Assembly: GCA_035300345.1 (NCBI GenBank)
Contig: DATGVM010000022.1
Location: forward strand, 27,365 to 91,364
Source of the DNA: Steroidobacteraceae bacterium
GTDB lineage: Bacteria > Pseudomonadota > Gammaproteobacteria > Steroidobacterales > Steroidobacteraceae
Direction: 5' to 3'
Length of the DNA: 64,000 nt
This document shows, piece after piece, positions 8,287-29,940 of this stretch (position 1 is the stretch's first letter; every line of letters begins with the position of its first letter). The notes under the pieces are model-generated. The model was not told the origin of the DNA and did not search any database. It worked only from the letters and a program-made list of their open reading frames with translations. Made by a program: the position numbers and the translations under genes.

Positions 8287-9617
8287 GCAGCAAGCGCTAC
8301 GGCCTGGTCGACAAGGCGCGCGACGAGCTCGTGCGGCGTTTTCTCGATCGCAAGAGCGCTGACCACGCCGTACATGCGCCACCTCAAGCTGCTCAGACGG
8401 GGAGCAAGTGGCTCAATATTCCGGAGGCTTACAGCCGCTTTGATCGCTTTCCCGGATACGAGAGACTCCTCGTGCCGCGGGTGGCTGCCGACCGGCTGGG
8501 CCTGGCCAACCCCTTTTTCAAGGCGCACGACGGTGTCGCCGGCGCAACCACCCTGATCGATGGGCGAAGCTACGTAAATTTCTCCTCGTATAACTATCTG
8601 GGGCTCGCAGGCCACCCGCGCGTCAACAAAGCGGCCACCGCCGCGATTGAGCGCTATGGCACTTCAGCCTCTGCCAGCCGCCTCGTGGCCGGGGAACGGC
8701 CAATTCAACGTGAGCTCGAAAAGGCACTAGCAGCCTTCTACGAAGTCGAAGATTGCGTAGTCTTCGTCAGCGGCCACGCGACCAACGTGACCACTATTGG
8801 TTATCTGTTTGGGCCGAAGGACCTTGTCGTACACGATAGCCTCATACACAACAGCGTGCTGGAAGGGATCAAGCTTTCCGGCGCCGCGCGCCGCTCATTT
8901 CCGCACAACGATACCGCCGCTCTCGACACGATTCTGAGCGAGATCCGCGGCCTGTTTGAGCGCGTACTCATCGTTGTCGAGGGACTGTACAGCATGGACG
9001 GCGACATCGCCGAGCTGCCTCGGCTAATCGACATCAAGCAGCGCCACAAGGCCTTCCTGATGGTCGACGAGGCGCATTCGCTTGGCGTGTTGGGTGAATC
9101 CGGCCATGGCATCCGCGAGCATTACGGCATTGCCGGCAAGGCAGTGGATATCTGGATGGGCACGCTCAGCAAGGCTCTGGCCGGCTGTGGCGGCTTTATC
9201 GCCGGCGAGCACGCACTGGTGGAGCATCTCAAGTACGCCGCCCCTGGGTTTGTGTACAGTGTCGGCCTGGCGCCACCACTGGCGGCCGCTTCTCTCGAGG
9301 CGCTGAAAATTATGATTGAAGAGCCGGAACGCACAAGGCGGCTGCACGAGCGAGCAAGGCATGCTCACGAGCTGGCGCGCGTGCGCGGCATCAATATTGG
9401 ACTGTCGCAAGGGTATGCGGTCATTCCAGCGATTGTCGGCAGCTCGCTCAAGGCTGCCAAGATCTCGAATCAGCTCTTCGAACGCGGCATAAACGTGCAG
9501 CCAATAGTGTATCCGGCGGTCGATGAGCGAGTCGCAAGGCTTCGATTTTTTGTCAGCACCATGCACACTGAAAAGCAGATTGCTTCCGCCATCGATGTGC
9601 TGGCCGGTCTGCTGTGA
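8283..9617 (+). CDS. PLP-dependent alpha-oxoamine synthase family acyltransferase (BioF/KBL/Spt-like; RkpG/WcbT-like)
   Basis: 444 aa. Motifs YNYLGL, VSGHATN, DEAHSLGVLG and the PLP-lysine motif GTLSKALAGCGGF. Its ATG overlaps the PKS stop codon (ATGA at 8283-8286). Confidence 0.9.
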   Translation: MSSKRYGLVDKARDELVRRFLDRKSADHAVHAPPQAAQTGSKWLNIPEAYSRFDRFPGYERLLVPRVAADRLGLANPFFKAHDGVAGATTLIDGRSYVNFSSYNYLGLAGHPRVNKAATAAIERYGTSASASRLVAGERPIQRELEKALAAFYEVEDCVVFVSGHATNVTTIGYLFGPKDLVVHDSLIHNSVLEGIKLSGAARRSFPHNDTAALDTILSEIRGLFERVLIVVEGLYSMDGDIAELPRLIDIKQRHKAFLMVDEAHSLGVLGESGHGIREHYGIAGKAVDIWMGTLSKALAGCGGFIAGEHALVEHLKYAAPGFVYSVGLAPPLAAASLEALKIMIEEPERTRRLHERARHAHELARVRGINIGLSQGYAVIPAIVGSSLKAAKISNQLFERGINVQPIVYPAVDERVARLRFFVSTMHTEKQIASAIDVLAGLL

Positions 9618-10753
9618 CTAATTCACTGAGCGAGATGCCTCAGCGACTGAGTGGCGTTTGGCGCTGGCTGCTGGGCCACCGACTCTTCCTGTATACGGTT
9701 GCTATTCCGACGGCACTTTCAATCCTCTATTTTGGACTTATTGCGTCGGATATTTATATTTCAGAATCCCGCTATATAGTCCGTAGCTCTGAACAACAGA
9801 GCAGCTCGGCACTCGGTTTGGTATTGAAGGACACGGGGTTGTCCCGCGCTCAGGACGATTCCTACTCTGTGGAGAATTTCATTCTCTCCCGCGATGCCCT
9901 GAGAGCGCTCGACGAGCAATTGCATCTGAAAGCTGCGTTTTCGGCACCGTCAGTCGATTTCATCAAGCGCTTCGCGAGTCTGGGCAGAAATGATGGGTTG
10001 GAAGAATTTGTCCTTTATTACCAGAACATGGTGGATGTACAGATTGAGTCGGATTCTTCAATTACCACCCTAACGACCCGTGCATACACTGCCGATATGG
10101 CTCGCACTATCAATGCGAGATTGCTTGATCTGGCCGAGAATCTGGTAAATCGACTCAACGAGCGCGCCAACCGCGACATGATCCGCTACGCGGCGGGCGA
10201 GGTCGCCCAGGCGGAAGCGAAGGCCAGAGAAACCAGCAGTGCCTTGGCGCAATACCGCAACCAGAATGGAGTCATCGACCCGGAGCATCAGTCCAGCATT
10301 CCTCTGGAGCGAATAGGCAAGCTGGAGGATCAGCGGATTGCCACAAAGGCTCAACTCGAAGTCCTTGAACAGTTCGCCCGAGATAACCCACAACTTCCCG
10401 TGCTGCGCCAGCAGGCAAAGCTACTTGACCAACAAATTGCCGCGGAGACCAGCAGTGTGGCCGGTACGGGCGGTCGTTCGTTGGCAGGTAAAGCAGCCGA
10501 ATACGAACACTTGGCATTGGACAAGGCTATTGCAGATAAGATGCTGGAAAGCGCCATGGGTACGCTAGCGCTGGCGCGTGATGAAGCACTACGCCAGCAG
10601 CTTTATCTTGAGCGAATCGTCCAACCTGGTTTGCCTGATAGGGCCATGGAGCCGCGTCGATTGAGAAACATCAGCGCGACCCTCCTATTAGGGCTGATCG
10701 TGTGGGGTGTGCTGTCGCTCACCGTGGCTGCCGTCAAAGAACACCGGGACTAA
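9614..10753 (+). CDS. kpsE: capsule polysaccharide export inner-membrane protein (KpsE/RkpR-like, PCP-3)
   Basis: 379 aa with an N-terminal TM (LFLYTVAIPTALSILYFGLIA), a long coiled periplasmic region and a C-terminal TM. It sits immediately upstream of kpsM/kpsT. The GTG start overlaps the upstream stop; an alternative ATG is at 9635. Confidence 0.8.
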   Translation: MTNSLSEMPQRLSGVWRWLLGHRLFLYTVAIPTALSILYFGLIASDIYISESRYIVRSSEQQSSSALGLVLKDTGLSRAQDDSYSVENFILSRDALRALDEQLHLKAAFSAPSVDFIKRFASLGRNDGLEEFVLYYQNMVDVQIESDSSITTLTTRAYTADMARTINARLLDLAENLVNRLNERANRDMIRYAAGEVAQAEAKARETSSALAQYRNQNGVIDPEHQSSIPLERIGKLEDQRIATKAQLEVLEQFARDNPQLPVLRQQAKLLDQQIAAETSSVAGTGGRSLAGKAAEYEHLALDKAIADKMLESAMGTLALARDEALRQQLYLERIVQPGLPDRAMEPRRLRNISATLLLGLIVWGVLSLTVAAVKEHRD

Positions 10754-10759
10754 CCGAGC

Positions 10760-11548
10760 ATGTCCGACGTGGCCAGCCTGATTCCTTCCGCGAAGATCCA
10801 GGGTCGAATTATCGGGGCATTGTTAAGGCGCGAGATTCTGACCCGCTACGGGCGCCACAACATCGGTTTTATGTGGTTGTTCGTCGAGCCGATGATGTTC
10901 ACCTCTGGGGTTCTGATCTTGTGGGCATCGCTCGGGCTTCATAAGGTTAGGCTGCCTATGGTCGCCTTCGCGCTCAGCGGTTACGGTACAGTTCTCTTGT
11001 GGCGCAATACCATCAATCGTTGCGGGGACGCGTTGGAGCCAAACCGGGCGCTTTTGCACCATCGCAATGTGCGTGTCATCGATTTATTTGCAGCGCGTGT
11101 AGTTCTTGAAATCGCCGGCGCATCGATGTCCCTGTTTATTCTTGAAGCGGCACTGACGGCTACCGGTTTGGTGACGGCCCCGGACGACGTCTTCAAGATG
11201 ATTATTGCTTGGGTGCTATTGGCGTGGTTTGCCGCAGACATGGCGCTGATTATTGGTTCGATCTCAACGCTCAGCGAATCCGCGGAGCGCGTCTGGCATG
11301 TACTGAGTTATTTGTTTCTGCCGTTGTCGGGGGCGTTCTTTATGGTCGGCTGGCTGCCGAAATATGCGCAGTCTTTGGTGCTCTGGATCCCGACAGTAAG
11401 CTGCACGGAACTACTGCGCGAAGGACTTTTCGGCGTCGGCGTAATTGCCCACTACAGGATTGGTTATCTCCTTGTGGTCAATACAGCACTGATGCTGCCG
11501 GGCTTGCTTCTGATCAAGTACATCGCCGCGCGGGTGGAAGGCGAATGA
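10760..11548 (+). CDS. kpsM: capsule ABC transporter permease (ABC-2 type)
   Basis: 262 aa, multi-TM ABC-2 permease-like sequence ([18 protein letters not shown]). Its stop overlaps the kpsT start. Confidence 0.85.
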
Positions 11549-12195
11549 TCAGCCTTAGGGGGGTGAGCAAACAGTACCGCGTAAGAAGCGGTATGTACAC
11601 TGTGTTTGAGAATTTGGATTTGCGTATTGAGCCCGGAGAGAAAGTGGGAATCCTGGGCCGAAATGGCGCCGGAAAATCAACTTTGATTCGTTTGATTAGC
11701 GGCGCCGAGTTGCCTACGCGAGGGAGAGTAGAACGCGAAATGTCGGTCTCGTGGCCGTTGGCTTTCGGTGGGGCCTTTCAGGGTAGCCTGACCGGCGTAG
11801 ACAATATTCGGTTCATTTGCCGCGTTTACAACGCCGATATCGCGGTCGCCATCCCCTATGTCGAGGCATTCTCTGAATTGGGCGTCTACCTTCGGGAGCC
11901 CGTCAAGAACTATTCTTCCGGCATGCGTGCACGCCTGGCGTTTGCCATTTCTATGGCTGTGGAATTTGATTGTTTCCTTATTGATGAAGTAATTGCCGTA
12001 GGCGACCATCGTTTTCACCAAAAGTGTCAACATGAGTTGTTTGAAAAGCGCCAGGACCGGGCGATGGTTATCGTTTCCCACGACGCACGCAACATCCGCG
12101 AACATTGCAAGCGCGCCAGCGTTTTCCATCAGGGAACGCTGCGCCACTTTACTGATGTGGATGGGGCTTACAATTTTTATAACGAGAACAGTTAG
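11545..12195 (+). CDS. kpsT: capsule ABC transporter ATP-binding protein
   Basis: The start [11 protein letters not shown] at 11545 overlaps the kpsM stop. Walker [10 protein letters not shown], signature [12 protein letters not shown], Walker B FLIDE. The track ORF 11209.. is an in-frame upstream extension inside kpsM. Confidence 0.9.
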
Positions 12196-12203
12196 CAAAA
12201 CAC

Positions 12204-13766
12204 ATGGCAGAACCGGAAAAGAGAATTAGGGTCCTACTGGAGATGCGACCCGCACTGGAGGGGTTCGCCGGCATTCCCCAGGAGGTGCGCCTGTTATTCC
12301 GCGCGCTGCGTATGATCAAGTCTGTAAGCGTAGAAGGGTTTCTGCAGACATCTTTTCGCCGTCTGGCTGCGGGCACGCGAAGTACAGGAGTATTTGGTTT
12401 CGTGTGGAGAACGCTGTCGGTGGCTCGCCGATTTAAGAGGTACTCCAATGTCATCATTTCGATGACGGAGAGGCCGCATTCAAGCTTTTGGGAAGCAGTA
12501 GTAAATTACCTGATGGCGAGAGGTGACTCGATTGCGCTGCAGGCTAAGATGATGGTTGGACTCGGGAGGGTGACGCTGACGAGATTCGAATCGAAGAGTT
12601 TTGAGGATTTTACATGGCGCACGCTGTTCTCCAAGACGCTGTCCGCGGGGGATTTTGCGTTAGTGTCTTCCGCTGACCATAGAGTGTGTTCTGTTCCGTG
12701 GAACACTTTTCACAGTGTTGGGCTGTCCTCTAGAAACTGGGGGGCCACGCCTAGGTATCCAATAGTCGACACCCGCGGCTTCGATGTTTTCATCGGTCAA
12801 ACCCCTTTTCCAGGCCGGGTCGACAAGAAAACAACCATGGTCATTCGCTACCACGACGCCATACCGGTATTCATGCCGCACACGATCCCGGACAAGTCCC
12901 TGCATCAGTCCACACACTTCTTTGCTTTGATGGGCAACGTGAAAGCCGGTGCTTGGTTTGCGTGCGTGTCTGAAGCGTCGCGGCGAGACGTATTGCGAAT
13001 GTTCCCGGAGGCGGCCGACCGGGCGGTAACCATCCACAACATGGTGTCGAACCACTATTTTGTGGAAGACTCCAGAATGGAGCGTGTGCCTGGAATTATC
13101 CGAGCAAGGCTGCATGAAGGAGATGCGTCAAAGGGTATCAGCGCAGAGCCAGCCTTCTTTTCTGTCAGGGAGAAAGAGAGTTTTTATCGCCGCTCGCTTT
13201 ACGGGAGCGGACTCAGGTACCTCCTCATAGTATCGACAGTGGAGCCGCGCAAGAACCACGTGCGTCTGCTGGCGGCATGGGAGGTCATTCGGGCAGAAGT
13301 CGATCCAAACATTAAGCTGATTGTGGTCGGCGGCCTTGGGTGGGATTACGCTCAGGTACTGAGGGGATTCAGCTCCTGGATTGATCGTGGGGAGTTGTTC
13401 ATGTTGAGCTCGGTGCCCGCTCCGGATCTGCGCGTTTTGTATCGTCATGCCGCCGCGACGGTCTGTCCGAGCCTCGGTGAGGGCTTTGATTTCTCTGGAG
13501 TGGAGGCAATGCGGTCAGGCGGCATCGCCGTCGCATCCGATATACCGGTCCACCGTGAAATTTATGGGGATGCGGCCGAGTATTTTGACCCATATTCGAC
13601 GATGAGCCTTGTATCTGCGCTGCGAAAAGTGCTCTACGACCCGGACGCGGTACGTTGCCAGGAGAAGCTGCGTGAACGTGCGGAGGAGGTGTCGTCCCGC
13701 TACCTGCCGGAAAAGATGCTTCCGCAATGGGAGACCTTTCTCAAGCGTGTGACTGCTCGTAAGTAG
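12204..13766 (+). CDS. glycosyltransferase family 4 (GT-B, GT1 clan)
   Basis: 520 aa. C-terminal GT4 signature: VSTVEPRKNH, VGGLGWDY, PSLGEGFDFSGVEAMRSG. Confidence 0.8.
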   Translation: MAEPEKRIRVLLEMRPALEGFAGIPQEVRLLFRALRMIKSVSVEGFLQTSFRRLAAGTRSTGVFGFVWRTLSVARRFKRYSNVIISMTERPHSSFWEAVVNYLMARGDSIALQAKMMVGLGRVTLTRFESKSFEDFTWRTLFSKTLSAGDFALVSSADHRVCSVPWNTFHSVGLSSRNWGATPRYPIVDTRGFDVFIGQTPFPGRVDKKTTMVIRYHDAIPVFMPHTIPDKSLHQSTHFFALMGNVKAGAWFACVSEASRRDVLRMFPEAADRAVTIHNMVSNHYFVEDSRMERVPGIIRARLHEGDASKGISAEPAFFSVREKESFYRRSLYGSGLRYLLIVSTVEPRKNHVRLLAAWEVIRAEVDPNIKLIVVGGLGWDYAQVLRGFSSWIDRGELFMLSSVPAPDLRVLYRHAAATVCPSLGEGFDFSGVEAMRSGGIAVASDIPVHREIYGDAAEYFDPYSTMSLVSALRKVLYDPDAVRCQEKLRERAEEVSSRYLPEKMLPQWETFLKRVTARK

Positions 13767-13825
13767 GCGTGCATTACAGCCGTGGTTCCCAGGCTTTGTA
13801 ATTGCCAGCACTGGAAGCGCGACAA

Positions 13826-16800
13826 ATGAACTGGCGTGATGGCGTGTCGAGATTGCTTGCGAGGATATTTGCGGCGGAACTGGTCCGCCTGTCTTACCGC
13901 GGACTGTTGGCGCGAGAGCCCGATGCGGATGGTCTGGACGTCTACGCATCGAAGCTTCGAGAGTCAGGCGAGTTTGCCGACCTGCTTGGGCAATTGTGCG
14001 AGAGCGAAGAGCGCTGGTTAAAGACGTTCTCAGCTCGGGCGCCGGAACTTATTCGGGCGCTGCATCTTGGATTGCTGAGTCGTGAGCCAGATCCAGAAGC
14101 ACTGCGGGATCAAGTGCCTCGATTGGGTGCGCCGCACGATCTGGCTGCACTACTTTCGGAGATGGCGCGCTCGGACGAACACTGGAACAGGACGTTAATT
14201 GGCAGAGCCCCTGAGCTGGTGCGGGTGGTATACCAGGGACTGTTGAATCGGGAGCCGGGCACCGGGGACCTGCGTCGGCATTCGGAGCAGCTGGCTGAGA
14301 CCCATGACCTGGAACCGCTGCTGCTAGAAATTGCCCGGTCGGACGAACACTGGAAGAAAATGGTCATTGCCCGAGCCCCTGAATTGGTGCGGGCCTTATT
14401 CCAGGGACTGCTAAATCGGGAGCCATACGCCGGGGACCTGCAACGGTTTGCGGAGCAGTTGGCAGAAACATATGACTTGGCGCCGGTGCTAGAGCAAATG
14501 GCGCGCTCAGACGAGCAGTGGCAGAGAACGCTGGAAATGCGGGCCAATGACTTGGTGCGGGCGCTATATCGGGGTCTGCTGCAACGGGAGCCTGAAGCTG
14601 ACGCTTTGCAGGCCTATGCCGCCAGGCTCATTCAGACGCACGATCTGGTGCCGCTACTGTCAGAGATTGTGCGCTCTGACGAGCGGTGGCATAAGTCGCT
14701 GGAGGTACGGGCCCCCGACCTAGTGCAAGCATTGTATCGAGGGCTACTGCAGCGCGACGCTGAACCCGAAGCGTTGGAAGCGTATGCCGCCAAGCTAATG
14801 CAGACACACGACCTAACGCCGCTACTGGCAGGGATTTCGCGCTCGGACGAAAGGTGGCAGAGGGCACTTGAGGCTCGAGCCCCCGAGCTGGTAAGCGCCC
14901 TTTATCGAGGGTTGTTGCAGCGTGAGCCAGAGTCCAAGGCGCTGGATGACTGTGTCGCCAAACTCCACGCGACACACGATCTGACGCCGTTGCTGGCATC
15001 CCTCGCCCGCTCAGACGAGTTGTGGGGGCAGCTCTTCTCAGCCCGTGCGCCGGAGCTTGTGGAGACCATTTACAAATCCCTCCTTGAGCGTGATCCCGAC
15101 GCATCGGGCTTTCAGTATTACACGGGTGTAATTGTTGAATCGAATGGTGTCAGCAAGGTCTTGACAAGGATCATCACTTCCCCAGAGTTCAATAAATTGC
15201 AGCAGCGGGTGGCTGTGGTGTTCCTGCACATCCAGAAGACGGCGGGCACTTCAATGCAGGGAATGCTCAAGGAGGCTTTTGGTGCGAACGCGTACGTCGA
15301 GCACGCCGATTCACTTGCCACATATGAGCGCAAGGACTTATCGGCGTTTTCCGTATTTGCCGGACATTTCAACCATGACAGCCTCGTGCACATACCTTGC
15401 AGACGTCTCTCAACGTATACATTCGTCAGGGAACCGAAAGAGCGACTGACCTCGCTCTACTATTTTTGGCGCGCTCACGAGCCAACGGCTCCCACCTGGT
15501 CCGAGGGGATGAAGATTGCCAATGAATTACTAATCGAAGAGTTTTTCGGGAGAGATGAATCTACGACGAATTCGCTTTTGTGGAATCACATGACCTGGGC
15601 CATTATGGGGCACCAGCAATGGGCCACGTGGCGCTTGACTTTGAATGGGGTCACAGAATCAGAAGCTTTGGAGCTATTGTCTGGCCAAATCCGACCTGCG
15701 ATTCGCAAGCGATTGCGCGAGTTCGTCTTTGTTGGGCTGCAGGAAGATTACGAACGATCCGTCGTCATGCTTTGTGAGGTTCTTGGGTGGCCTAGATTCA
15801 AAAGCGTGAGGTCTGACCAGAGCCTCGATCGCCTTACCAAAAAAAATCCTCATTTCAAAAAAACCTTAGAGAAGCAGCCGAGGTCCGAGCATCTGGATAC
15901 GTTGCTTGACAGGTTTGTCCAACTCGACAATATCGTTTACGAGGAGTCCAAGCTGCTCTATGTGGAGCAGGTGGCGCTGTACGGTGACGGCGCAATGTCA
16001 CGCCTTGGAGCGCACCTTCGCGGTGGAGACGCAGGCTTCTCGACGACGGATCTGGATGAGCGAAAGGTAGTATTTCTTCACGTGCCCAGGACCGGTGGGA
16101 CTGCGCTGCGCAGTCTTTTGCTTCCGCATTTCGCAAAGGACTCAGTGTGCCCTGAGCGGTTTAACGACTTGCGTCATTATGCGTGCGGGGAACTAGTGCG
16201 ATACCGTTTGTTTTCCGGCCATTTCGATCTTCCCTCCATCAAGTTGATTCCCGGCCGAAGGATAGTGGTTACGCTGTTACGAGAGCCTGTTGCACGGCTC
16301 GTTTCGCTATACCATTTTCTTCGGACACCTGGGTCAGGGGCCGCCGAACGGCAGAATCGCGAACTCGCGAGGTTGGCGAGTGCGTGTTCACTTGTCGAGT
16401 TCTTTAAGACTGAAGAGGTTCGTTCTCACCACCGAATCAACAATTCAATGACGAGGGTACTTACACAAGTTGTGGATGGCAGGAAGAGGGAGACAAGCGC
16501 GGTTGCGGCGGTTGCTGCCGGCGATGCAGTACCGGATGTCGCTCAGGCGCTGCGGGAGCTCAATGCACTGGACGCGTTCGGGATAATGGAGCGATATGAG
16601 GAGTCGACACGACTGATATTGTCAGCAATTGGCTTGCCCACTCCTCAGGAGACGGAAGAAAGCCAGGCACAGGGGGTGCTTGCAGCGCGGGAACGCGCAA
16701 ATCGGCGGATCGAGCACGAACCATTGCCCGTGGACATCAGAGATGTAGTTGGGGAGCTTGTGGTGGCGGATTTGCAGCTCTACCAACACGCCACACGGAT

Positions 16801-16900
16801 ATTTGAGAATCGCCTTCAATCCCGGAGCGCACCGGTGCCGAAGCGTAGGAGAGGATCCCCGAGTCGGCGAATGGCGTTCAAGGCAAGCCGGGAGACCTAA
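13826..16900 (+). CDS. multidomain protein: 8 tandem DUF4214-like repeats plus two PAPS-type sulfotransferase domains
   Basis: ORF 13802..16900 opens with TTG; the ATG at 13826 is preceded by GGAAG. Eight 56-aa repeats match (A-P-E/D-L-V-x-A-L-Y-x-G-L-L-x-R-E-P-x..-H-D-L-x-P-L-L-..-R-S-D-E-x-W). Two domains follow, each with a PAPS 5'-phosphosulfate loop (VVFLHIQKTAGTS; VVFLHVPRTGGTA) and a 3'-phosphate motif (VREPKERLTSLYYFW; LREPVARLVSLYHF). Confidence 0.8.
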   Translation: MNWRDGVSRLLARIFAAELVRLSYRGLLAREPDADGLDVYASKLRESGEFADLLGQLCESEERWLKTFSARAPELIRALHLGLLSREPDPEALRDQVPRLGAPHDLAALLSEMARSDEHWNRTLIGRAPELVRVVYQGLLNREPGTGDLRRHSEQLAETHDLEPLLLEIARSDEHWKKMVIARAPELVRALFQGLLNREPYAGDLQRFAEQLAETYDLAPVLEQMARSDEQWQRTLEMRANDLVRALYRGLLQREPEADALQAYAARLIQTHDLVPLLSEIVRSDERWHKSLEVRAPDLVQALYRGLLQRDAEPEALEAYAAKLMQTHDLTPLLAGISRSDERWQRALEARAPELVSALYRGLLQREPESKALDDCVAKLHATHDLTPLLASLARSDELWGQLFSARAPELVETIYKSLLERDPDASGFQYYTGVIVESNGVSKVLTRIITSPEFNKLQQRVAVVFLHIQKTAGTSMQGMLKEAFGANAYVEHADSLATYERKDLSAFSVFAGHFNHDSLVHIPCRRLSTYTFVREPKERLTSLYYFWRAHEPTAPTWSEGMKIANELLIEEFFGRDESTTNSLLWNHMTWAIMGHQQWATWRLTLNGVTESEALELLSGQIRPAIRKRLREFVFVGLQEDYERSVVMLCEVLGWPRFKSVRSDQSLDRLTKKNPHFKKTLEKQPRSEHLDTLLDRFVQLDNIVYEESKLLYVEQVALYGDGAMSRLGAHLRGGDAGFSTTDLDERKVVFLHVPRTGGTALRSLLLPHFAKDSVCPERFNDLRHYACGELVRYRLFSGHFDLPSIKLIPGRRIVVTLLREPVARLVSLYHFLRTPGSGAAERQNRELARLASACSLVEFFKTEEVRSHHRINNSMTRVLTQVVDGRKRETSAVAAVAAGDAVPDVAQALRELNALDAFGIMERYEESTRLILSAIGLPTPQETEESQAQGVLAARERANRRIEHEPLPVDIRDVVGELVVADLQLYQHATRIFENRLQSRSAPVPKRRRGSPSRRMAFKASRET
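13871..15206 (+). repeat. in-frame tandem coding repeat, 8 units of 168 nt (56 aa), DUF4214-like
   Basis: Unit boundaries read directly: 13871, 14039, 14207, 14375, 14543, 14711, 14879, 15047. Units are diverged at nucleotide level but clearly alignable, e.g. gcccctgagctggtgcggg at 14207 and gcccctgaattggtgcggg at 14375. Confidence 0.85.
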
Positions 16901-17093
16901 GGTTTGCACTGGATAGAGAATGCTTTGAGCGGCGGCCATCGAGGGATTCGGGCCGGATTACATTTAAGTGACGCACGCTGGAATTGACTAGGGAATAGGC
17001 GTTAAGTCTCTCTGTACTGCGAGATTCACTCGTCAGGTGAAGGGAATCTGTCTCGGCAGCTGCCGTGGTGTCCAGATAGGGAAGAGGTTGTGA

Positions 17094-18338
17094 TTGAAGG
17101 TGCGGCTTAAAAAGTGGCTTGCTGACATCGCATTTAGGGTCCTTGTACGGCTCTGCGCGACGAAAGTCGTGCGCGCATCGTATTGCGGTGTGCTGTCGCG
17201 AGAGGCTGATGCTGCTGGACTGGCCGCGTCCGCGAATGCCCTACGAGGTACGATGGACATTGCCGCGTTGCTCCGGACATTGAGCCTATCGGACGAGCAC
17301 TGGGGTAAGGTATTCGATTCCCGGTCTTTTGAGATCGTAAGAAGTGCTTACCGAGGACTACTCGCGAGGGATGCCGACCCTGAGGGATTGCAGAGCTATT
17401 CCGCTCTGCTGAGGTTAAATGGGAACCTTGAAGAAATGCTGGACAGGATGGTCCATTCACAGGAGTTCATGCGCATTCAGTCGGCCCGCGTGGCAACCTT
17501 GGCGGCAGAGAGTCGGAGTAGCTCCAACCCTAAACATACCTTTGATAGCGAGACCATTGCGTTCTTGCACATTCAGAAGACCGCTGGCAGCACAGTCAAT
17601 CGGGCACTCGCCATCGCATATGGGAGAGGAAACATCTGCTTTCCACCCGACAATGGAAGCAGTATGTTCAAGTTGTCGGCCAGTGAATTGTCACAATATA
17701 AGGGCTACGCCGGCCACTTTAATTTCGACGAACTCGCTTATATACCGCGCAAGAGAGTGTCTGTTTTGTGCTTCGTACGGAACCCAAAGGACCGGTTGCT
17801 GTCCCTCTACTACTACTGGAAGGCACATCAACCTGGGCACCCAGACTTCAGCATGGGTGCAATGATTGCAAATGCGCTGCCTCTTGGAGAATTTGTGCGC
17901 GATAGGCGAGTGACAAAAATGCCCGAAGTGTGGAATCACATGACGTGGGCGATTATGGGCGAGAGAATGTGGTCTAGGTGGCAGGCGGAACTGGCTGAGG
18001 CCCCTAATCGTGCGGCGTCACTGGCGTCGATGCGCGACGCAATTCGCGGACGATTGCAAGAACTTGCCTTTGTGGGCTTGCAGGAAGACTTCGATAAGTC
18101 ACTTGACGTGCTATTTCGAATTCTCCGAAAGCAAAGGCCAGTGATTGGAGGAAGATTCAATTCCCTCGAATCTCGTATGCTAACGGACCCGCACTTCAAG
18201 AAGCACATTGCAAGAGAGGAGGTAACAGAAGAATGTGCCGATGACTTGGAGCGATTGCTCGAGTTGGATACGATGCTCTACGAGGAGGCAAGGCTAATCA
18301 ATGCGAGTCAATGCGCGGAATATGCACCCGCCAATTGA
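17094..18338 (+). CDS. DUF4214-like (2 repeats) plus sulfotransferase domain protein
   Basis: 414 aa. Two N-terminal repeats (VVRASYCGVLSREADAAGL...SDEHWGKV; IVRSAYRGLLARDADPEGL...HSQEFMRI). They are followed by IAFLHIQKTAGSTV and VRNPKDRLLSLYYYW, and WNHMTWAIMG is shared with the first domain of the upstream protein. TTG start preceded by GGGAAGAGG. Confidence 0.8.
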   Translation: MKVRLKKWLADIAFRVLVRLCATKVVRASYCGVLSREADAAGLAASANALRGTMDIAALLRTLSLSDEHWGKVFDSRSFEIVRSAYRGLLARDADPEGLQSYSALLRLNGNLEEMLDRMVHSQEFMRIQSARVATLAAESRSSSNPKHTFDSETIAFLHIQKTAGSTVNRALAIAYGRGNICFPPDNGSSMFKLSASELSQYKGYAGHFNFDELAYIPRKRVSVLCFVRNPKDRLLSLYYYWKAHQPGHPDFSMGAMIANALPLGEFVRDRRVTKMPEVWNHMTWAIMGERMWSRWQAELAEAPNRAASLASMRDAIRGRLQELAFVGLQEDFDKSLDVLFRILRKQRPVIGGRFNSLESRMLTDPHFKKHIAREEVTEECADDLERLLELDTMLYEEARLINASQCAEYAPAN

Positions 18339-18353
18339 ATGGAGGAGGACTCA

Positions 18354-19685
18354 ATGAATCATTACCCCGTTAGGCTATTGGCGGCTCGCAAAGCGCCCGC
18401 GCCCTTGGTCTGTTGTGTAATGGGGTGGTTTGCCATTTTGATATGCTGCGCTACGCCTTTGGAGGCGTCAGATGGTCTCGACGGTAAACTCGTTGTGGGA
18501 TACCAAGGATGGTTCGGGTGTCCGAATGATTTCGAGGCGAACAAGGCGTGGCAGCATTGGTTCCTTAGAGGTGTTCGTTCGGAGTTTATGACGGTGGATT
18601 TATTGCCTTCGGTCGGTCAAATTGATTCAAAGGATCTGTGCGAGACGGGAATACCACGTGCAGACGGGCAGGGGACAATTAAGCTGTTTTCGTCCCAAAA
18701 CCCCAAGATCGTTTTCGCCCATTTTCGCTGGATGCGAGACGCCGAGATTGATGGTGCTGCGACGCAACGCTTTGTGAGCGAAATCGGGGACCCAGTAAAA
18801 AGGCGGCGCAGCGATCACGTCCTAACCAACGTTCGCGCCGCCGCAGAAGGCAACAATAGGGTATTTTTTGTAGTCTTTGACGTCTCTGGTGAGAAAGCTG
18901 AGTCTGTGGTCAGTGACGTCCGACAGGACTGGCGGCATCTTGTAAACGATCTCAAGCTGACTGATAGCCCAGCATACATGCGTGATCACGGGAAACCCGT
19001 TCTGGAGCTATGGGGGTTCGGGTTTAGGACTCGAGTGGGTGCGCCAGAGGAAGTTGGTGCGTTAATTCGCGACTTGAAGACTGGGCAAGACGGGCTTGCG
19101 GCGGTAACACTCATCGGCGGTGTGCCCGCCCGCTGGCGAACCCTTGAGGTAGACGCCAAGCCAGAGGCTGGTTGGGCCAAGGTCTATCGAAGTTACGATG
19201 TAATCAGTCCTTGGTGGGTTGGGCGGTTTAATGATGAGGTTAGCGCGACCGCGTTTACGCGCGATGTCGTTGTGCCGGATCTCGCAGAAGCACGACGCGC
19301 GGGCGTGCGTTATATGCCGGTAATCTTCCCGGGGTTTTCTGCCTATAACCAACAATTAAATCATGGCAATCTTCACGATGCAGTCCTTGATCGAATTCCA
19401 CGCCGCTGCGGAAAGTTTCTTTGGTGGCAGGTATCAAGTCTGCTTTCCCAGCACGTCGACATGCTTTATGCGGCGATGTTTGATGAGGCCGACGAGGGTA
19501 CCGCTCTCTTCCCGATGGAAACTCAGCCGGACAAACTCCCAGCGGGCTCACATATGGTTTACTTAAACCAGGATGGGTGCTCACTACCAGAAGATTGGTA
19601 TTTGCGCGTCGTAGGAAGAGCTGCGCAGTATATTCATCGGGGAGAAACGCCCCCCGTAAAGCTCAGCGACGTAGTGTCTCCGTGA
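18354..19685 (+). CDS. secreted or membrane-anchored glycoside-hydrolase-like protein (family not confidently recognised)
   Basis: The ATG at 18354 follows GGAGGAGG; the track start is 18339. Hydrophobic N-terminus (VMGWFAILICCATPLEA). Motifs VVGYQGWFGCPND, ISPWWVGRF, YMPVIFPGFS and AMFDEADEGTALFP recall GH99-like TIM-barrel enzymes, but I cannot assign a family without a search. Confidence 0.6.
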   Translation: MNHYPVRLLAARKAPAPLVCCVMGWFAILICCATPLEASDGLDGKLVVGYQGWFGCPNDFEANKAWQHWFLRGVRSEFMTVDLLPSVGQIDSKDLCETGIPRADGQGTIKLFSSQNPKIVFAHFRWMRDAEIDGAATQRFVSEIGDPVKRRRSDHVLTNVRAAAEGNNRVFFVVFDVSGEKAESVVSDVRQDWRHLVNDLKLTDSPAYMRDHGKPVLELWGFGFRTRVGAPEEVGALIRDLKTGQDGLAAVTLIGGVPARWRTLEVDAKPEAGWAKVYRSYDVISPWWVGRFNDEVSATAFTRDVVVPDLAEARRAGVRYMPVIFPGFSAYNQQLNHGNLHDAVLDRIPRRCGKFLWWQVSSLLSQHVDMLYAAMFDEADEGTALFPMETQPDKLPAGSHMVYLNQDGCSLPEDWYLRVVGRAAQYIHRGETPPVKLSDVVSP

Positions 19686-19896
19686 CTGCCCGTCGCGAAT
19701 CGGAAAGCAAGCCGTGCACGCATGGGCGTCCGCTTGCCAACACGTTTTTCCTGTGACGCCCGCCGCGCTATTCAAGGCGCTTCGTTTGTTGTGGGACACC
19801 TTGGATTCGTAGAGTAACCGGCGAGAGAATCTTCTTGGGTCAACAAAGGTCCGCAGATCAGGTCGCAGTGCAATTGCGAGCATCGGCGTGGGTGAC

Positions 19897-20967
19897 ATGA
19901 TGTTAACGGAAGATGATGTTATCTGGTGCTATCGCGCGATACTTGGCAGGCCCCCAGAGTCCGCGGCAGTCGTTCAATCGCATGTGTCGTCGGGCAAGAC
20001 CTTTCGCACACTGGTCTGGACGTTTCTCAAATCTCAAGAGTATCGGAGCAAGACGTCAGTCCCGGCATTTGTGCCGCTAGACCGGGAAGAAATGGATATG
20101 GACATCACGGCGTCCTCGACTGATATGCGGTTGCTCATTGATCGCGTCCGCAATGCGTGGACGCATCTGGGCCAAGTACGCCCTCATTATTCTGTCCTGA
20201 CCAATCGGAAATACCTTCCGGAGTCCTTAGACGCCGCATCAATTGAGGATTTCTATTCGAGCGGAGTGGGCGAGGTGTCGGCAATCGCCGCGATATTGAG
20301 GCGATTTGGAAAACCCGAAGTGGGATCTCAAGTCTGCGTTGAATATGGCTGCGGGCTCGGCCGTGTAACAGTTCCTTTGGCGAAGAAATTCAAGAGCGTG
20401 CATGCGTACGACATATCGGGGAACCACCTCGCTCTGGCTAGAAAACGTGCCTTTGATGCCGGTGTGCACAATATAGAATTCCACTTGTGCTCCGCTAAAG
20501 TCGTTATTGAGAATCTCGAGCGTTGCGATGTCCTTTACTCGCGGATCGTATATCAGCATAACCCTCCGCCAATTATTCGCGAATTGATCGGAGCAGCTTT
20601 AAGATCATTGCGTCCAGGTGGTATCGCAATCTTTCAAGTGCCAACTTACTGGGGAGGATACTCGTTTCGAATCAAGGAATATTTAGCGCAGCCGGCAGCG
20701 CTCGACTTGGAAATGCATTGCATTCCACAGGGTGTTGTTCTCTCTATCATTGCTGAATCGCACTGCAAGTTACTGGAGATCCGGGAGGACGGTTCAACCG
20801 GGCACAGCCAAGCGATTTCAAACACCTTTGTCGTCCAGCGACTTGCCGGAAGATCGCGGCCGTGGCGATGGGCTTCCGACGTGGCTGTAGCGGCTCATCG
20901 AATTTATCAGCACTTCCGGAGGACGGTCTTTACGCGTAGGAGGAAAAACGCGGCTATATCTTCCTAG
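19897..20967 (+). CDS. class I SAM-dependent methyltransferase with DUF4214-like N-terminal segment
   Basis: N-terminus DDVIWCYRAILGRPPESAAVVQSHVSSGKTFRTLVWTFLKSQEY. SAM motif I VCVEYGCGLGRVTVPLA; post-I HAYDIS. The track start is GTG at 19888. Confidence 0.75.
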   Translation: MMLTEDDVIWCYRAILGRPPESAAVVQSHVSSGKTFRTLVWTFLKSQEYRSKTSVPAFVPLDREEMDMDITASSTDMRLLIDRVRNAWTHLGQVRPHYSVLTNRKYLPESLDAASIEDFYSSGVGEVSAIAAILRRFGKPEVGSQVCVEYGCGLGRVTVPLAKKFKSVHAYDISGNHLALARKRAFDAGVHNIEFHLCSAKVVIENLERCDVLYSRIVYQHNPPPIIRELIGAALRSLRPGGIAIFQVPTYWGGYSFRIKEYLAQPAALDLEMHCIPQGVVLSIIAESHCKLLEIREDGSTGHSQAISNTFVVQRLAGRSRPWRWASDVAVAAHRIYQHFRRTVFTRRRKNAAISS

Positions 20968-21175
20968 AGACAAGAAGTTACCTAAGAGCCTGAGTGTCTT
21001 GGTTTCCTACCAGCAAGGGACGCGCGGGAGGTAAGCCAAGTTCCCTGCGAGTGGAGGAACCGGGCTACGGCGTCGAGGGGTGGAGGAACGTCCTACGCTC
21101 TCGTATATATGGGTCGGCAACTTGGAAGGAGGTCGACGTTTGGCCTTCGTGAGTCGAAAGGGAAGGACGTAACCA

Positions 21176-22243
21176 ATGGCTACAAATCCATACTCCGCCC
21201 TAGCCGATAGCGCATATTGGTCCCGAGCGGTAGCGCGTGTATTACCTATCGATGTCGATCCTGTAGGAACCCCGCCCTTCAGCATATCCAAATCGGATCG
21301 AATAGCCACGGTTGGCAGTTGTTTTGCGCAACATATTTCCAAGGCTCTTATGGCGGACGGGTACGCGTTCTTGATTACGGAAAAGGGAGAGTTTGAAAGG
21401 AACTACGAGGTCTACCCGGCACGCTTCGGAAATATCTATAGCACTCGACAACTATTGCAGCTTTTTAGTCGTGCTTACGGCCTCTTTCTACCACAGGACG
21501 AAACATGGGTTCGCCCCGACGGCGCTCTTGTTGATCCCTTTAGACCCCAGATAGAGCCCGTTGGCTTCCCTTCGATCGACGCCCTCGTGGCGGACCGCCG
21601 TGATCACTTGGCAGCTGTGCGTCGGATGTTCGAACTTTGTGACGTACTAATTTTCACACTGGGCCTGACAGAGGTGTGGCGGTCCGTCGTGGACGGGGCG
21701 GTGGTTCCACTCGCTCCAGGCGTTGTCGCTGAGTCGACCACAGCCGCTGAATACGAATTTGCAAACCTTGAAGTCTCCGACATGGTTGGCGATCTTTGTA
21801 CAACGATTGATAAGTTACGGACTGTAAACACCAGCGCGCGTGTAGTCCTAACGGTGTCCCCTGTTCCACTTGTTGCGACCTATGAGAACCGCCACGTGCT
21901 ACTGTCGACCATTTACAGCAAGTCAGCTCTAAGGGTCGTCGCAGAAATGGTCTGCCGGCGTGTCCAGGGAGTTTCCTACTTCCCGTCATACGAAATTATT
22001 ACAGGCCACCATAACCGGTACGCCTATTTCGAGCCCGACTTGCGCAGCGTTTCAAGCGAAGGCGTGGCTCAAGTTATGCGTTTGTTTAAGAGGCACTACC
22101 TAAGAGACGATGTCCAAACGCAGACAGGTCTTCCAAAGGAGCACGGTCCAGATACCACGGCCCAAGAAATGGCCATCGAGCAACGTTTGCGACAAGCGAA
22201 AGACATCCTATGTGATGAAGAGGAACTTGACCCAAGGAATTAG
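21176..22243 (+). CDS. GSCFA family protein
   Basis: 355 aa. Contains the eponymous motif IATVGSCFAQHI near the N-terminus. RBS-like GGAAGGA upstream. Confidence 0.75.
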   Translation: MATNPYSALADSAYWSRAVARVLPIDVDPVGTPPFSISKSDRIATVGSCFAQHISKALMADGYAFLITEKGEFERNYEVYPARFGNIYSTRQLLQLFSRAYGLFLPQDETWVRPDGALVDPFRPQIEPVGFPSIDALVADRRDHLAAVRRMFELCDVLIFTLGLTEVWRSVVDGAVVPLAPGVVAESTTAAEYEFANLEVSDMVGDLCTTIDKLRTVNTSARVVLTVSPVPLVATYENRHVLLSTIYSKSALRVVAEMVCRRVQGVSYFPSYEIITGHHNRYAYFEPDLRSVSSEGVAQVMRLFKRHYLRDDVQTQTGLPKEHGPDTTAQEMAIEQRLRQAKDILCDEEELDPRN

Positions 22244-22257
22244 CGCAGGCGTCACAA

Positions 22258-23154
22258 GTGAATGTCGCGATCGTTGGTAATTGTCAGGTCCATGGCTTTG
22301 GCGCTGCGCTGTCGGGGATGTGCCCGGGCGTGAGCGTGGAGATTCATGAAATTGTGCAGGTCACGCGAACCGGGACAGCGAGTGCAGTCGCCGCGAAATT
22401 GAAGACGGCCGACGTGGTGTTTACTAACGCGGCCGAGGAGATGCGGAGTCTTGTGCCACTTGAGAGGTTGAGTGGAGCAGGAGTACGAACGATATCTTTC
22501 CCTGCGATAGAATTTACGGGGTTTCAGCCGGATATGGCTCGTCTAATTGATTCCTCTGCAAAGCCAACAGCCGGTCCGTTGTGCCCCTGCCACTCTCTAA
22601 TCATTGCCGCTTCCTATTCTCTCGGCTTTTCTCCACAGCGAACTGCGCTGCTTTTCAACTCGTACGTTTATGCCTCGTTGGGTTACTTTGCGGAATTTGG
22701 ACCGGCCCGCAGAGCCCTACTCTCAAAGGCATCAAGTCTCGGATATGACCTTTCTGAGAGCTTCGCGCAATGGCTTCGCGAAGGATCATTCATGCATACG
22801 ATCAACCATCCACACATTCGAGTTCTAGGAACACTAGCCGCCATGGCCGCCCAAAAAGCGGGCTTCCAGGCCGATGTGGCGCTTTGTGAGTCGCCCGGAG
22901 ACAGCTTAGCTCTGTCGTTTTGTTGGCCTGTGTATCCCGAGCTGGCGGAACGTCTTTCCGTTGACGGTGGGCTCTCGTTTGAGAGAAATGCTTTTCTGGC
23001 TCGCCAGCTAAATGTTTCAAGACGATTGTCGCTCGAAGAGTTTATTACGCAGTCGTTTGCGGCGTATGCAGTGGGCGGCCAGGACCTAGTCGCGCTGTCA
23101 ACGCGCGTCGCACACACTGCCTCGGTATTACGGGTCATTTGTGCCCGTTCGTAG
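22258..23154 (+). CDS. WcbI-like capsule biosynthesis protein (tentative)
   Basis: 298 aa with a GTG start. The N-terminal MNVAIVGNCQVHG resembles the GNCQ start of WcbI-type domains as I recall them. Assignment rests on that motif and capsule context only. Confidence 0.5.
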   Translation: MNVAIVGNCQVHGFGAALSGMCPGVSVEIHEIVQVTRTGTASAVAAKLKTADVVFTNAAEEMRSLVPLERLSGAGVRTISFPAIEFTGFQPDMARLIDSSAKPTAGPLCPCHSLIIAASYSLGFSPQRTALLFNSYVYASLGYFAEFGPARRALLSKASSLGYDLSESFAQWLREGSFMHTINHPHIRVLGTLAAMAAQKAGFQADVALCESPGDSLALSFCWPVYPELAERLSVDGGLSFERNAFLARQLNVSRRLSLEEFITQSFAAYAVGGQDLVALSTRVAHTASVLRVICARS

Positions 23155-23394
23155 GTTTCATATATCGACGCGCGTCTCGCTGCGGTCGCATTTCTCGTGC
23201 CCCGCATAAGCACCGCCACGTGATTCTTACGGGCCAGTGTTTTGATGATCAGGATCAAGTTAAAATGCTCCAGCCTGTTCTGATGAGCGGAAAATGACAT
23301 GTTTGGCGGCGATAGCAGGCTATTCGGGCGGTCTACATCGGCGACCGCCGCGTTCCTGGTAGCCTTAGCGTCCCGCAATCCTACGCGGCAGAGA

Positions 23395-24344
23395 GTCTCT
23401 CAGGGAGGCTCATAGTCGGATACCAGGACTGGTTCGGGTGCCCGGATGATTTGAAGGCAACAAGGATTGGCAGCATTGGATTATAAGAGGTATGGGGCAC
23501 ATCACACGAGGGTCGATCTGTTGGCGTCGGCTCGGTGGCCTGTGGCCCAGGATCTGTGCGAGACGGGGCTGCAGCGTGCGGAAAACCGAGCACTTGTAGC
23601 TCTGGTCATCGGACAATCCCGATGTCTTTGAGGCCCATTTTGCTTGATGCAAGAGGCCGGGATTGATGGCGCTGTGCTGCAGCGCTTTATGTTTACATTG
23701 CGGCACCCGGCGAAGTGGCGGCACTGATCAGGATTTGAAGGGGGCGCGACGGGCTTGCGACGACAGCACTGATTGACGGTGTACCGACCCACTGGCGAAC
23801 GATGGACGGCGACTCTAAACCGGAAGCTGGCTGATTAAATAAGTGTCGTAGTCACGACGTAATCAGGCCATGGTTCGTAGGGCGGTTCGGGGATGAATTC
23901 AGTGAAGCCGCGTTTGTACGCATTGAGGTAAATCCGGATCAAGTTGAGACTCGGCGACTGGGCGTGCGCTATCTACCGGTCATCTTCCCTGGCTTTTCCT
24001 GTTGTATCCTGCAGACCACGCAAATTAGGTCAGAACGGGCTGTACACAACGAGATTCCGCGACGCCGCGGTCGATTTGTCTGGGGCCAGGAATCCAGACT
24101 GCTCGCCCGACACCTCGAAATGCTGAACGCGGCTATGTTCGAGGAGGCGGACGAGGGCAGGGCACTGTTTCCGGACGAGACCCGAGAGGATATGCTGCCG
24201 GCCGGTTCGCATATGGTTTACCTTAACCAAGATGGCTGTTTCCTACCCGACCACTGGTATTTGCGCGTCACGGGAAAGGCGGCTCAATATCTACACCGGC
24301 GCAATGTGCCGCCCGGGAAATTTAGGGATGTCGTTACTCCCTAA
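23395..24344 (+). pseudogene. decayed duplicate of the 18354..19685 glycosidase-like gene
   Basis: Translated fragments align in order with the intact gene: IVGYQDWFGCPDD (23410) vs VVGYQGWFGCPND; DLCETGLQRA vs DLCETGIPRA; GIDGAVLQRF vs EIDGAATQRF; VIRPWFVGRF vs VISPWWVGRF. The 126-aa ORF 23964..24344 (RYLPVIFPGFS...AMFEEADEGRALFP...GSHMVYLNQDGC) matches the C-terminus. Several stops and frame changes occur (e.g. tga/taa near 23833), plus an internal deletion of roughly 90 codons. Confidence 0.85.
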
Positions 24345-24535
24345 GGAATGCAGTGCTCGTTGCCCCAATGCTGCAGCTGCCGCGGTGCGGATCGCCCGAG
24401 CAGATGAGTTTCATCTGATCGCATCAAACGGAGCCATCGATGCGCCAAGCCGTGAACCTTGATAATGCCGTTGACGCCAACTGGCGGAAAACGGCAATGT
24501 CCGCTTTAATGTGAATGGGATCAGGGGAGAACTAA

Positions 24536-25282: not shown

Positions 25283-25328
25283 CGTGCCGGGTATTTCTGG
25301 AAGGGGCAAGGAATCTGGGCGAACTCGC

Positions 25329-26522: not shown

Positions 26523-26556
26523 CCGCATCTGACAGAATAAATGCCTCGTAAGTCAT

Positions 26557-26898
26557 ATGGTTAAGTCACATACCTCACTACAAGGTCCATTGGACGACCA
26601 GCATCTTTACCAAGAAAGACCAGGGGCGACGTCAGTGGGGATCTTTTCCCGGTGTTTCAGGGCATTGCTCATCGGCGCGGTGATGTATTTCTCGCTCCGC
26701 TCACGGGGAGTGCCCATCAGTCAGTCCGTTGCCGTCACGCTCATTCCACTCCTGTTGGGTGTCCTCGACTTGTTAACCGCCTTCGCCTACTCGTTGAGCG
26801 GCGTTGTTCTGATCTTTGCCTGCGGGTACAACTTTCTGGCGGGGTATCATCTCCATCCCGATGACCTGCACAACATCGTAGCTGCCTGGCGTAAATAG
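26557..26898 (+). CDS. small hypothetical membrane protein
   Basis: 113 aa with about 3 predicted hydrophobic helices. No RBS and no recognisable domain. Confidence 0.35.
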   Translation: MVKSHTSLQGPLDDQHLYQERPGATSVGIFSRCFRALLIGAVMYFSLRSRGVPISQSVAVTLIPLLLGVLDLLTAFAYSLSGVVLIFACGYNFLAGYHLHPDDLHNIVAAWRK

Positions 26899-26905
26899 AA
26901 AGATC

Positions 26906-29108: not shown

Positions 29109-29133
29109 GCTGGCTATCGGTCCTGAATCGGGA

Positions 29134-29784: not shown

Positions 29785-29940
29785 AACATGGTTCCAACAA
29801 TTGACTGTGGGAAATATGCGCTTGGCGAAGTCACCCATGTAGCGAAGTGTTAAGCCGACTGCTTCCTGCCATGAGTGGACGCATGACCCGGCACCGCTAG
29901 GTATGGAGCGATGATCGCACGAAGGTGTTTTATACTGTGG

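Follow-up and report, generated by a model that had tools for sequence, protein, structure and literature searches.

The stretch analysed here, a 64,000-nt window of a Steroidobacteraceae metagenome-assembled genome (MAG; GenBank assembly GCA_035300345.1, contig DATGVM010000022.1), carries within a capsule locus a gene whose product joins two sulfotransferase (ST) domains, henceforth D1 and D2, in a single polypeptide. The novelty lies in the architecture, in which a long array of DUF4214 repeats leads into a pair of ST domains that belong to different subfamilies, all on a single chain; a text search of the literature found no description of tandem, dual or two-domain sulfotransferase proteins. 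With moderate confidence, we read the double-ST protein as a soluble, cytoplasmic capsule-tailoring enzyme with two O-sulfotransferase domains that depend on 3'-phosphoadenosine 5'-phosphosulfate (PAPS) and act at distinct positions. All coordinates refer to the window, residues are those of the open reading frame (ORF), and the components of the gene are as follows.

13826..16900, +: DUF4214(x8)-ST-ST gene, with ATG 13826 as the likely start, 1024 aa
13838..15196, +: eight DUF4214 repeats (Pfam PF13946, E 1.7e-39), all-helical
15209..16018, +: ST domain D1, D1-type subfamily, residues about 470-739
15215..15253, +: D1 5'-phosphosulfate-binding loop VVFLHIQKTAGTS (HIQKTAGTS), residues 472-484
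15359..15379, +: D1 AGHFNHD, with His522 (15365..15367) as putative catalytic base
15425..15454, +: D1 3'-phosphate-binding VREPKERLTS (PxxRxxS), P545-R548-S551
16019..16063, +: short inter-domain linker without a DUF4214 repeat, pLDDT (predicted local distance difference test) <50 at model residues 271-274
16064..16828, +: ST domain D2, a divergent member of the D2-type subfamily, residues about 755-1009
16067..16105, +: D2 5'-phosphosulfate-binding loop VVFLHVPRTGGTA (HVPRTGGTA), residues 756-768
16214..16234, +: D2 SGHFDLP, with His807 (16220..16222) as putative catalytic base
16277..16306, +: D2 3'-phosphate-binding LREPVARLVS (PxxRxxS), P829-R832-S835

Two sulfotransferase domains in one polypeptide

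The gene occupies a single unbroken ORF (13802..16900, +) of 1032 codons counted from TTG, with no stop and no frameshift; the ATG at 13826, preceded by GGAAG 8 nt upstream, is the favoured start. The 1024-aa product is identical to HLQ12670.1 (P0092 in our set) from a Steroidobacteraceae MAG, which NCBI names only 'DUF4214 domain-containing protein', and its ST content is invisible in the current annotation. NCBIfam has no model for either the double-ST protein or the neighbouring ST protein. Since a Kyte-Doolittle scan revealed no signal peptide and no transmembrane segment (the maximum over a 19-residue window being 1.14), the protein is read as cytoplasmic.

A preliminary description, made from the sequence alone, had proposed two PAPS-type ST domains in this polypeptide, and the proposal is borne out by matches to PF03567 (Sulfotransfer_2), BLASTP alignment of D1 with D2, Foldseek and profile searches. 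Its 'Sulfotransfer_2/HS6ST-like' label proved correct (Pfam, PDB profile match, Foldseek), and all four motifs that it cited are in place (loops from 15215 and 16067, PxxRxxS from 15425 and 16277). Against PF03567, which has a gathering cut-off of 22 bits, D1 alone scores 30.3 bits and the match in the full protein reaches 40.7 bits. Among PDB sequences, D1 matches HS2ST (phmmer, E 0.009), and in this alignment its Gly-His pairs with chain position 444, which the Lys83 offset equates with His142. This residue is the catalytic base of HS2ST, and the H142A variant keeps <1% activity (PMC6094399).

D1 and D2 are 25% identical over 252 residues (BLASTP, E 2e-20). Of the 28 sequences aligned for D2, 25 match PF03567 at E<=1e-3, six of these 25 being fused proteins that also carry D1, and the D2-family profile matches HS6ST in the PDB (E 5.8e-10). 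An AlphaFold2 model of D2, based on the same number of sequences (28), has a pLDDT of 82.4 and a predicted template modelling score (pTM) of 0.80. Its top seven Foldseek matches in the PDB are HS6ST (5T05, 5T03) and HS2ST (4NDZ, 3F5F) structures, with E values of 5e-6 to 5e-5 and probability 1.00 (5e-6 for HS6ST 5t05/5t03 and 2.7e-5 for HS2ST 4ndz; query-normalised TM 0.44-0.54). D2 is thus placed in the ST family by four independent results, namely, its paralogy to D1, its PF03567-matching relatives, the HS6ST profile match and the matches of its model. For the two domains together, the similarities go well past anything expected by chance. The two-domain AlphaFold2 model has a pLDDT of 88.2, with D1 blocks at about 95, although D1 in this model is backed by only 7 sequences and, in the alignment (A3), MAFFT put D1-type single-domain proteins on D2 columns. 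The top seven Foldseek matches of the two-domain model also are HS6ST/HS2ST (probability 1.00; best HS2ST 4ndz_A, E 5.7e-6), and the other listed matches of both models are nearly all sulfotransferases.

When 94 sequences from the two subfamilies are aligned, the invariant positions are F, H and G in the 5'-phosphosulfate-binding loop, the Gly-His pair and R-x-P-x-x-R-x-x-S, and the loop Lys column is nearly invariant. D1 and D2 both carry the loop F/H/G, Gly-His and RxPxxRxxS, as well as the loop Lys/Arg-G-x-T/S. In D1, the catalytic loop position is taken by Lys479 (codon AAG, 15236..15238). The Gly-His of D2 aligns with the AGHF of D1, and in the D2-family alignment G73 and H74, as well as R94, P96, R99 and S102, are invariant. 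PF03567 is defined by PxxRxxS together with a Lys in the loop, or an Arg in its place such as Stf0 has (PMC11625862). Both domains would be expected to use PAPS and to carry out O- rather than N-sulfation. We considered and rejected an N-sulfotransferase assignment: the base is a His, as in the O-sulfotransferases HS2ST/HS6ST, and not the Glu of NST/3-OST (PMC11625862).

The linker between D1 and D2 is a region of variable length among the fused homologues. The window protein ends in a tail, PVPKRRRGSPSRRMAFKASRET (16829..16897), that is strongly basic and predicted to be disordered; the other fused homologues lack it.

Two subfamilies and a recurrent fusion

About 110 homologues split cleanly into D1-type and D2-type clades (BLAST and neighbour-joining tree), most members of either type being single-domain proteins with or without DUF4214. 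The D1-D2 fusion is found in seven clusters defined at 90% identity (P0001-P0007), which are 47-56% identical to the window protein and always have D1 before D2; three of the fused clusters share a KpsEMT-GT4-methyltransferase-ST context. A HMMER search of 1.84 billion representatives yielded 4478 relatives at E<=1e-3, of which 156 reached E<=1e-30. Among the best 150 of these relatives are two D1-D2 representatives, P0115 with four D1-type domains and P0205 with two D2-like domains. As a case in point, P0115 (1694 aa; L011, 10001..15085) has a (DUF4214-ST)x4 arrangement of four complete D1-type domains with intact motifs, apart from an Arg at the loop Lys position of the otherwise intact domain 3. 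It is present on four contigs and adjoins a fifth ST gene in a syntenic kps locus (L011/L012). By comparison, a scan of species-representative genomes recovered three single-domain relatives only, in Desulfarculales, gammaproteobacterial and deltaproteobacterial MAGs. The D1-D2 fusion is therefore real, recurrent and uncommon, and is one of several ways in which this family strings ST domains together.

Given that the source is a MAG and that D1-type and D2-type genes are usually separate, the fusion might be suspected to be spurious, two adjacent genes having been merged during metagenome assembly or in gene calling. However, the reading frame is continuous, without a stop or frameshift, a 100% identical protein has been called from separate read sets, and the fusion is seen in six more homologues, recovered from samples and data sources unrelated to one another (JGI, ENA, Logan). 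The continuous frame and the six independent fused homologues lead us to exclude an assembly artefact, the probability of which we consider next to nil.

The partition into two well-separated subfamilies fits different acceptor positions for D1 and D2 without proving them. The acceptor-side motifs differ as well, WNHMTWAIMG being characteristic of D1-type and CPERFN / INNxMTR of D2-type domains. Because the two subfamilies have long been separated and differ in these motifs, the sequences make it most likely that D1 and D2 would sulfate different positions or residues. Both domains could instead be active yet redundant, modifying the same position, with the fusion raising local dosage or processivity. 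Same-subtype copies do occur in relatives, including the four D1-type domains of P0115, two D2-type genes in L007 and two D1-type genes in L001. Nevertheless, with only 25% identity between D1 and D2, their membership in two deep clades, subfamily-specific acceptor-side motifs and conserved D1-then-D2 pairing, redundancy appears quite unlikely.

The DUF4214 array

The eight repeats have a period of exactly 56 aa, corresponding to the 168-nt period detected by Tandem Repeats Finder, and the repeat motif recurs at ORF residues 35, 91, 147, 203, 259, 315, 371 and 427. Among homologues, the number of repeats ranges from 0 to 8. Within the A2 profile, the part that covers DUF4214 matches the linker (REP) domains of the phycobilisome protein ApcE (E 9e-16); judging from this profile match, DUF4214 is a relative of the phycobilisome-linker REP domain. 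Within the locus, the module is found on three tailoring enzymes, namely, the double ST, the ST encoded at 17100..18338 and the methyltransferase encoded at 19888..20967, which suggests a common docking function. A DUF4214 protein has been reported to bind O-antigen (bioRxiv 10.64898/2026.09.02.748959) and, by analogy, the array probably docks the tailoring enzymes onto either the polymer or the assembly complex.

The capsule locus

A kps/wcb-type ABC-transporter capsule locus spans 616..33359 of the window. Besides the double-ST gene, it includes the following features.

616..9617, +: type I polyketide synthase (PKS; WcbR/RkpA-like, 2556 aa, KS-AT-DH-MT-ER-KR-ACP) and BioF-like acyltransferase, a pyridoxal phosphate enzyme (WcbT/RkpG-like)
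9614..10753, +: KpsE-like (TIGR01010 BexC/CtrB/KpsE, E 1e-99, 334 bits, below the equivalog cut-off of 437.5)
10760..11548, +: KpsM-like (ABC2_membrane; NF050053, E 5e-20, below cut-off)
11545..12195, +: KpsT-like (ABC_tran), a bare 216-aa ATPase without a terminal-cap-binding domain
12204..13766, +: GT4 glycosyltransferase, 520 aa (Pfam Glycos_transf_1, E 1.6e-18)
17100..18338, +: third ST domain, DUF4214 plus D1-type ST, 40% identical to D1 (BLASTP, E 7e-63; PF03567, 28.4 bits)
18339..19685, +: 448-aa exported protein with an N-terminal hydrophobic segment and a weak, sub-threshold GH99-like match
19888..20967, +: DUF4214-methyltransferase (class I)
21176..22243, +: GSCFA, 355 aa
22258..23154, +: WcbI-like, 298 aa
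24536..25282, +: FkbM methyltransferase
25284..26522, +: KpsD-like exporter (Poly_export and SLBB)
26906..28054, +: GT4 glycosyltransferase
28041..29108, +: Capsule_synth, KpsS-like (PF05159, E 4.4e-35)
32085..33359, +: Capsule_synth, KpsC-like (PF05159, E 3.7e-69), the end of the locus, followed by tig-clpP-lon

The capsule setting proposed in the preliminary description is upheld by the KpsE, KpsM, KpsT and KpsD genes and by two Capsule_synth genes of the KpsS/KpsC type. The group-2-like export set is complete, with KpsM/KpsT, KpsE (PCP-3) and KpsD (OPX), and the KpsS and KpsC families of transferases for beta-linked 3-deoxy-D-manno-octulosonic acid (Kdo) also are represented; a hydrolase, a FemAB-like gene and an epimerase lie between the KpsS-like and KpsC-like genes. 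No match to kpsF/kpsU, for cytidine monophosphate-Kdo, was seen among the annotated ORFs of 616-33359, where no search was aimed at these two genes. The PKS and BioF-like pair also heads the syntenic locus L004, and the arrangement is that of Burkholderia wcbR/wcbT and rhizobial rkpA/rkpG; a lipid-carrier role has been assigned to the wcb operon (PMC11766843).

The double ST is not the only sulfotransferase of the locus. The preliminary description recognized the two fused domains and missed a third, in the next gene (17100..18338). The 414-aa ORF of this gene, for which the annotated start is 2 codons later, is 99% identical to P0071 (NCBI: 'sulfotransferase family 2 domain-containing protein'). 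The core KpsEMT-GT4-(methyltransferase)-ST(s)-~440-aa protein-WcbI/GSCFA-KpsD-GT4-KpsS recurs, whole or in part, in L004, L005, L009, L010 and L011/L012. It surrounds fused and unfused relatives alike, with one to five ST domains per locus. For instance, the 520-aa GT4 gene is kept directly upstream of the methyltransferase/ST genes in L004, L005, L009, L010 and L011, and the accessory set 18339..23154 also is retained in L004, L005 and L011.

In the last three loci, the position of the 448-aa protein is filled by Pfam-less proteins that we set alongside it by size and position. The 448-aa protein may be a periplasmic glycanase and, as such, a hint to the type of backbone; PDB sequence searches with this protein and with the 520-aa GT4 returned nothing useful on the backbone sugar. 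The GSCFA and WcbI-like proteins are separate in the window, whereas L005, L007 and L011 encode a fused WcbI-then-GSCFA protein of about 755 aa, a second fusion/fission polymorphism of this locus family. About 1.4 kb (23155..24535) hold no convincing gene, the only sizeable forward ORF (23964..24344, 126 aa) being without a Pfam match, and may be the remnant of a lost gene. The G+C content is 53-56% over 10-26 kb, the part with the transporter and tailoring genes, versus 60-69% in the flanks, consistent with a horizontally exchanged, serotype-specific region.

The suggestion in the preliminary description that the decoration is glycosaminoglycan-like found no support: the glycosyltransferases identified in the locus are of the GT4 family only, with no GT2/GT45 glycosaminoglycan synthase. 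A glycosaminoglycan-type capsule was accordingly considered and rejected, as no such synthase (KfiA/KfiC, KfoC or HAS-like) was found and, Capsule_synth aside, there are just two GT4 genes.

Proposed role of the double sulfotransferase

PAPS is a cytoplasmic compound, and in ABC-transporter-dependent (group 2) systems the chain is completed on the cytoplasmic face before export; KpsS and KpsC have a role in the Kdo linker (PMC11766843). Under the reading that we favour, each domain would bind PAPS through its 5'-phosphosulfate-binding loop (Lys479 in D1, Arg763 in D2) and the PxxRxxS helix, the conserved His (His522 in D1, His807 in D2) would deprotonate a sugar hydroxyl, and the latter would attack the sulfate in line. 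In this way, D1 and D2 would each modify a different position or residue of the growing capsule chain at the cytoplasmic face, after chain building by the GT4 enzymes and before export by KpsMT/KpsE/KpsD. This step would also involve the neighbouring D1-type ST, two or three methyltransferases and, probably, acylation. The fusion would tether two activities that elsewhere reside on separate proteins. The capsule chain is thus probably sulfated at more than one position. In related loci, a gene for adenosine 5'-phosphosulfate (APS) kinase (PF01583) lies directly downstream of stand-alone D2-type ST genes (L005-L008; for instance, L005 11578..12144 and L007 11965..12552), which lends PAPS-dependent sulfation its best, though indirect, support from gene context.

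Several observations weigh against this reading. How D1 and D2 sit relative to each other is predicted with only moderate confidence (pTM 0.64), and the role ascribed to DUF4214 leans on one preprint about a different protein. Neither an APS kinase gene (best E 1.3 when that of L005 was used for tblastn) nor an ATP sulfurylase gene is present in the window, and there are no cys genes in the 10 kb past its right end (L013/L014), so that PAPS in the source genome must come from elsewhere. The presence of cysC/cysDN in the cluster, together with ST genes, has been used as a criterion for sulfated-capsule clusters (PMC11641403), and the window lacks these genes. The remaining points concern D2. 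In the search against ST family profiles called for by the preliminary description, D1 exceeds the PF03567 cut-off and D2 alone stays below it (18.9 bits, E 0.0018). The preliminary description also transcribed the letters of the D2 loop and passed over both the replacement of the usual loop Lys by Arg763 (AGG, 16088..16090) and the divergence of the domain. D2 breaks 12 columns that are >=85% conserved, the most in its clade (near relatives, 0-8), and it shares on average 51% identity with the D2s of the other fused proteins, which share 55-58% among themselves. D2 could thus be weakened or repurposed.

Taken further, these observations could mean that only D1 is catalytic and that the D2 of the window is a decaying or repurposed pseudo-enzyme, which might bind PAP(S) or polysaccharide or serve as a scaffold. 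Lys occupies the loop position in 26 of the 28 D2-type sequences, Arg being found only in the window D2 and the distant P0114, and the 12 deviations and the sub-threshold Pfam score set D2 apart from most of its alignment. Moreover, conservation in the window protein is lower for D2 (51%) than for D1 (56%), the reverse of the order found in every other fused protein, and D1 shows no lag. However, the remaining invariant positions of D2 are intact (GGT, CPERFN, GH, RxPxxRxxS) and its model is confident. Furthermore, Lys to Arg (AAG to AGG) is the most conservative change possible, and Arg functions in Stf0 and in TPST2, a genuine sulfotransferase with Arg78 at this position (PMC10951654), and recurs in an intact domain of P0115. 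Loss of D2 activity therefore appears possible although rather unlikely; we consider D2 probably active despite the Arg, even if its activity is clearly less certain than that of D1.

The acceptor might also be something other than the capsule repeat unit, namely, a PKS-derived lipid, the Kdo linker or a length cap at the chain terminus. In some ABC-transporter O-antigen systems, multi-domain enzymes with long spacers set chain length by modifying the terminus (WbdD), and the DUF4214 array could serve as such a spacer. The locus also encodes the large PKS and BioF-like enzyme. Conversely, the closest folds are those of polysaccharide O-sulfotransferases, KpsT lacks a terminal-cap-binding domain, and up to five ST domains per locus sit uneasily with just one cap at the terminus. 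Furthermore, the ST genes accompany the GT4/methyltransferase block, and L010 and L007 are without a PKS gene in the stretch examined. On balance, such acceptors seem very unlikely, and sulfation of the capsule chain itself remains our preferred interpretation.

A broader proposition, which we regard as speculative and, in its full form, unlikely, is that the window represents one member of an unrecognised, widespread family of kps loci in uncultured soil and sediment Proteobacteria. Such loci would encode modular 'sulfation assembly lines' of one to five ST domains with two specificities, either free or fused (D1-D2, D1x4, D2x2). DUF4214 arrays of variable length would tether each domain and act as polysaccharide-binding or spacing modules, and the capsules would be combinatorially and heavily sulfated (and methylated/acylated). 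A defined pattern of sulfation would then be written by domain order and spacing, as a bacterial equivalent to the sulfation code of glycosaminoglycans.

The polysaccharide sulfotransferases of bacteria are few in number and little characterised (PMC11625862), and are sought for the enzymatic production of heparin-like and other sulfated glycans. A single chain of the window protein supplies two ST domains that are soluble, cytoplasmic and drawn from different subfamilies, and its relatives have as many as four. Should both domains prove active, they would provide a ready-made pair of regiospecific tools and a test case for the coupling of sulfation to ABC-transporter capsule assembly. The DUF4214 arrays, in turn, gain a testable function. 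The locus also suggests that sulfated polyanionic capsules are made by soil Gammaproteobacteria (Steroidobacteraceae), beyond marine bacteria and rhizobia.

Comparison with known systems

Animal HS2ST and HS6ST are type II membrane proteins of the Golgi lumen that have one ST domain and act on heparan sulfate. HS2ST (PDB 3F5F/4NDZ) and HS6ST (5T03/5T05) share their fold with both window domains, for which they are the best structural match. They also share the 5'-phosphosulfate-binding loop, PxxRxxS and the position of the His base, and polysaccharide O-sulfation is the chemistry expected of D1 and D2. The identity, however, is only 15-19%, D2 has Arg instead of Lys in the loop, and the window protein is bacterial and, by prediction, cytoplasmic, and combines a DUF4214 array at its N-terminus with a pair of ST domains.

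Capsules that are sulfated and encoded by kps-type loci have been described before. The preliminary description named rhizobial precedents, which stand, but the precedents are not only rhizobial: sulfated capsules have been proven chemically for Cobetia marina KMM 1449, with kpsETMD, kpsSC, wcbPQRT, PAPS and ST genes (PMC11766843), and for Vibrio sp. KMM 8419, with a kps-type locus that includes kpsS and no kpsC (PMC11641403). By gene content, these resemble the window locus in being gammaproteobacterial, kps-type and endowed with ST genes. They differ in having their own cysDNC/cysQ PAPS genes and no mention of a fused ST, whereas the window encodes a fused ST and all its ST proteins carry DUF4214. 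The Mesorhizobium loti KpsS and Sinorhizobium LpsS are bacterial polysaccharide sulfotransferases (Townsend & Keating 2008, as cited in PMC11625862). As described there, they are single-domain proteins for PAPS-dependent sulfation of surface polysaccharides, and it is by this description that we liken them to the window protein.

The closest counterparts are the stand-alone D1-type and D2-type DUF4214-STs (P0009, P0010, P0107, P0071). They have one ST domain each, with 40-58% identity to the matching domain and the same motifs, and are encoded by uncultured Proteobacteria in the same KpsEMT-GT4-(methyltransferase)-ST-...-KpsD-GT4-KpsS neighbourhood. P0115 represents a different solution, in which each of the four D1-type domains has its own DUF4214 spacer, whereas in the window protein a single long array precedes D1 and D2, which are joined directly.

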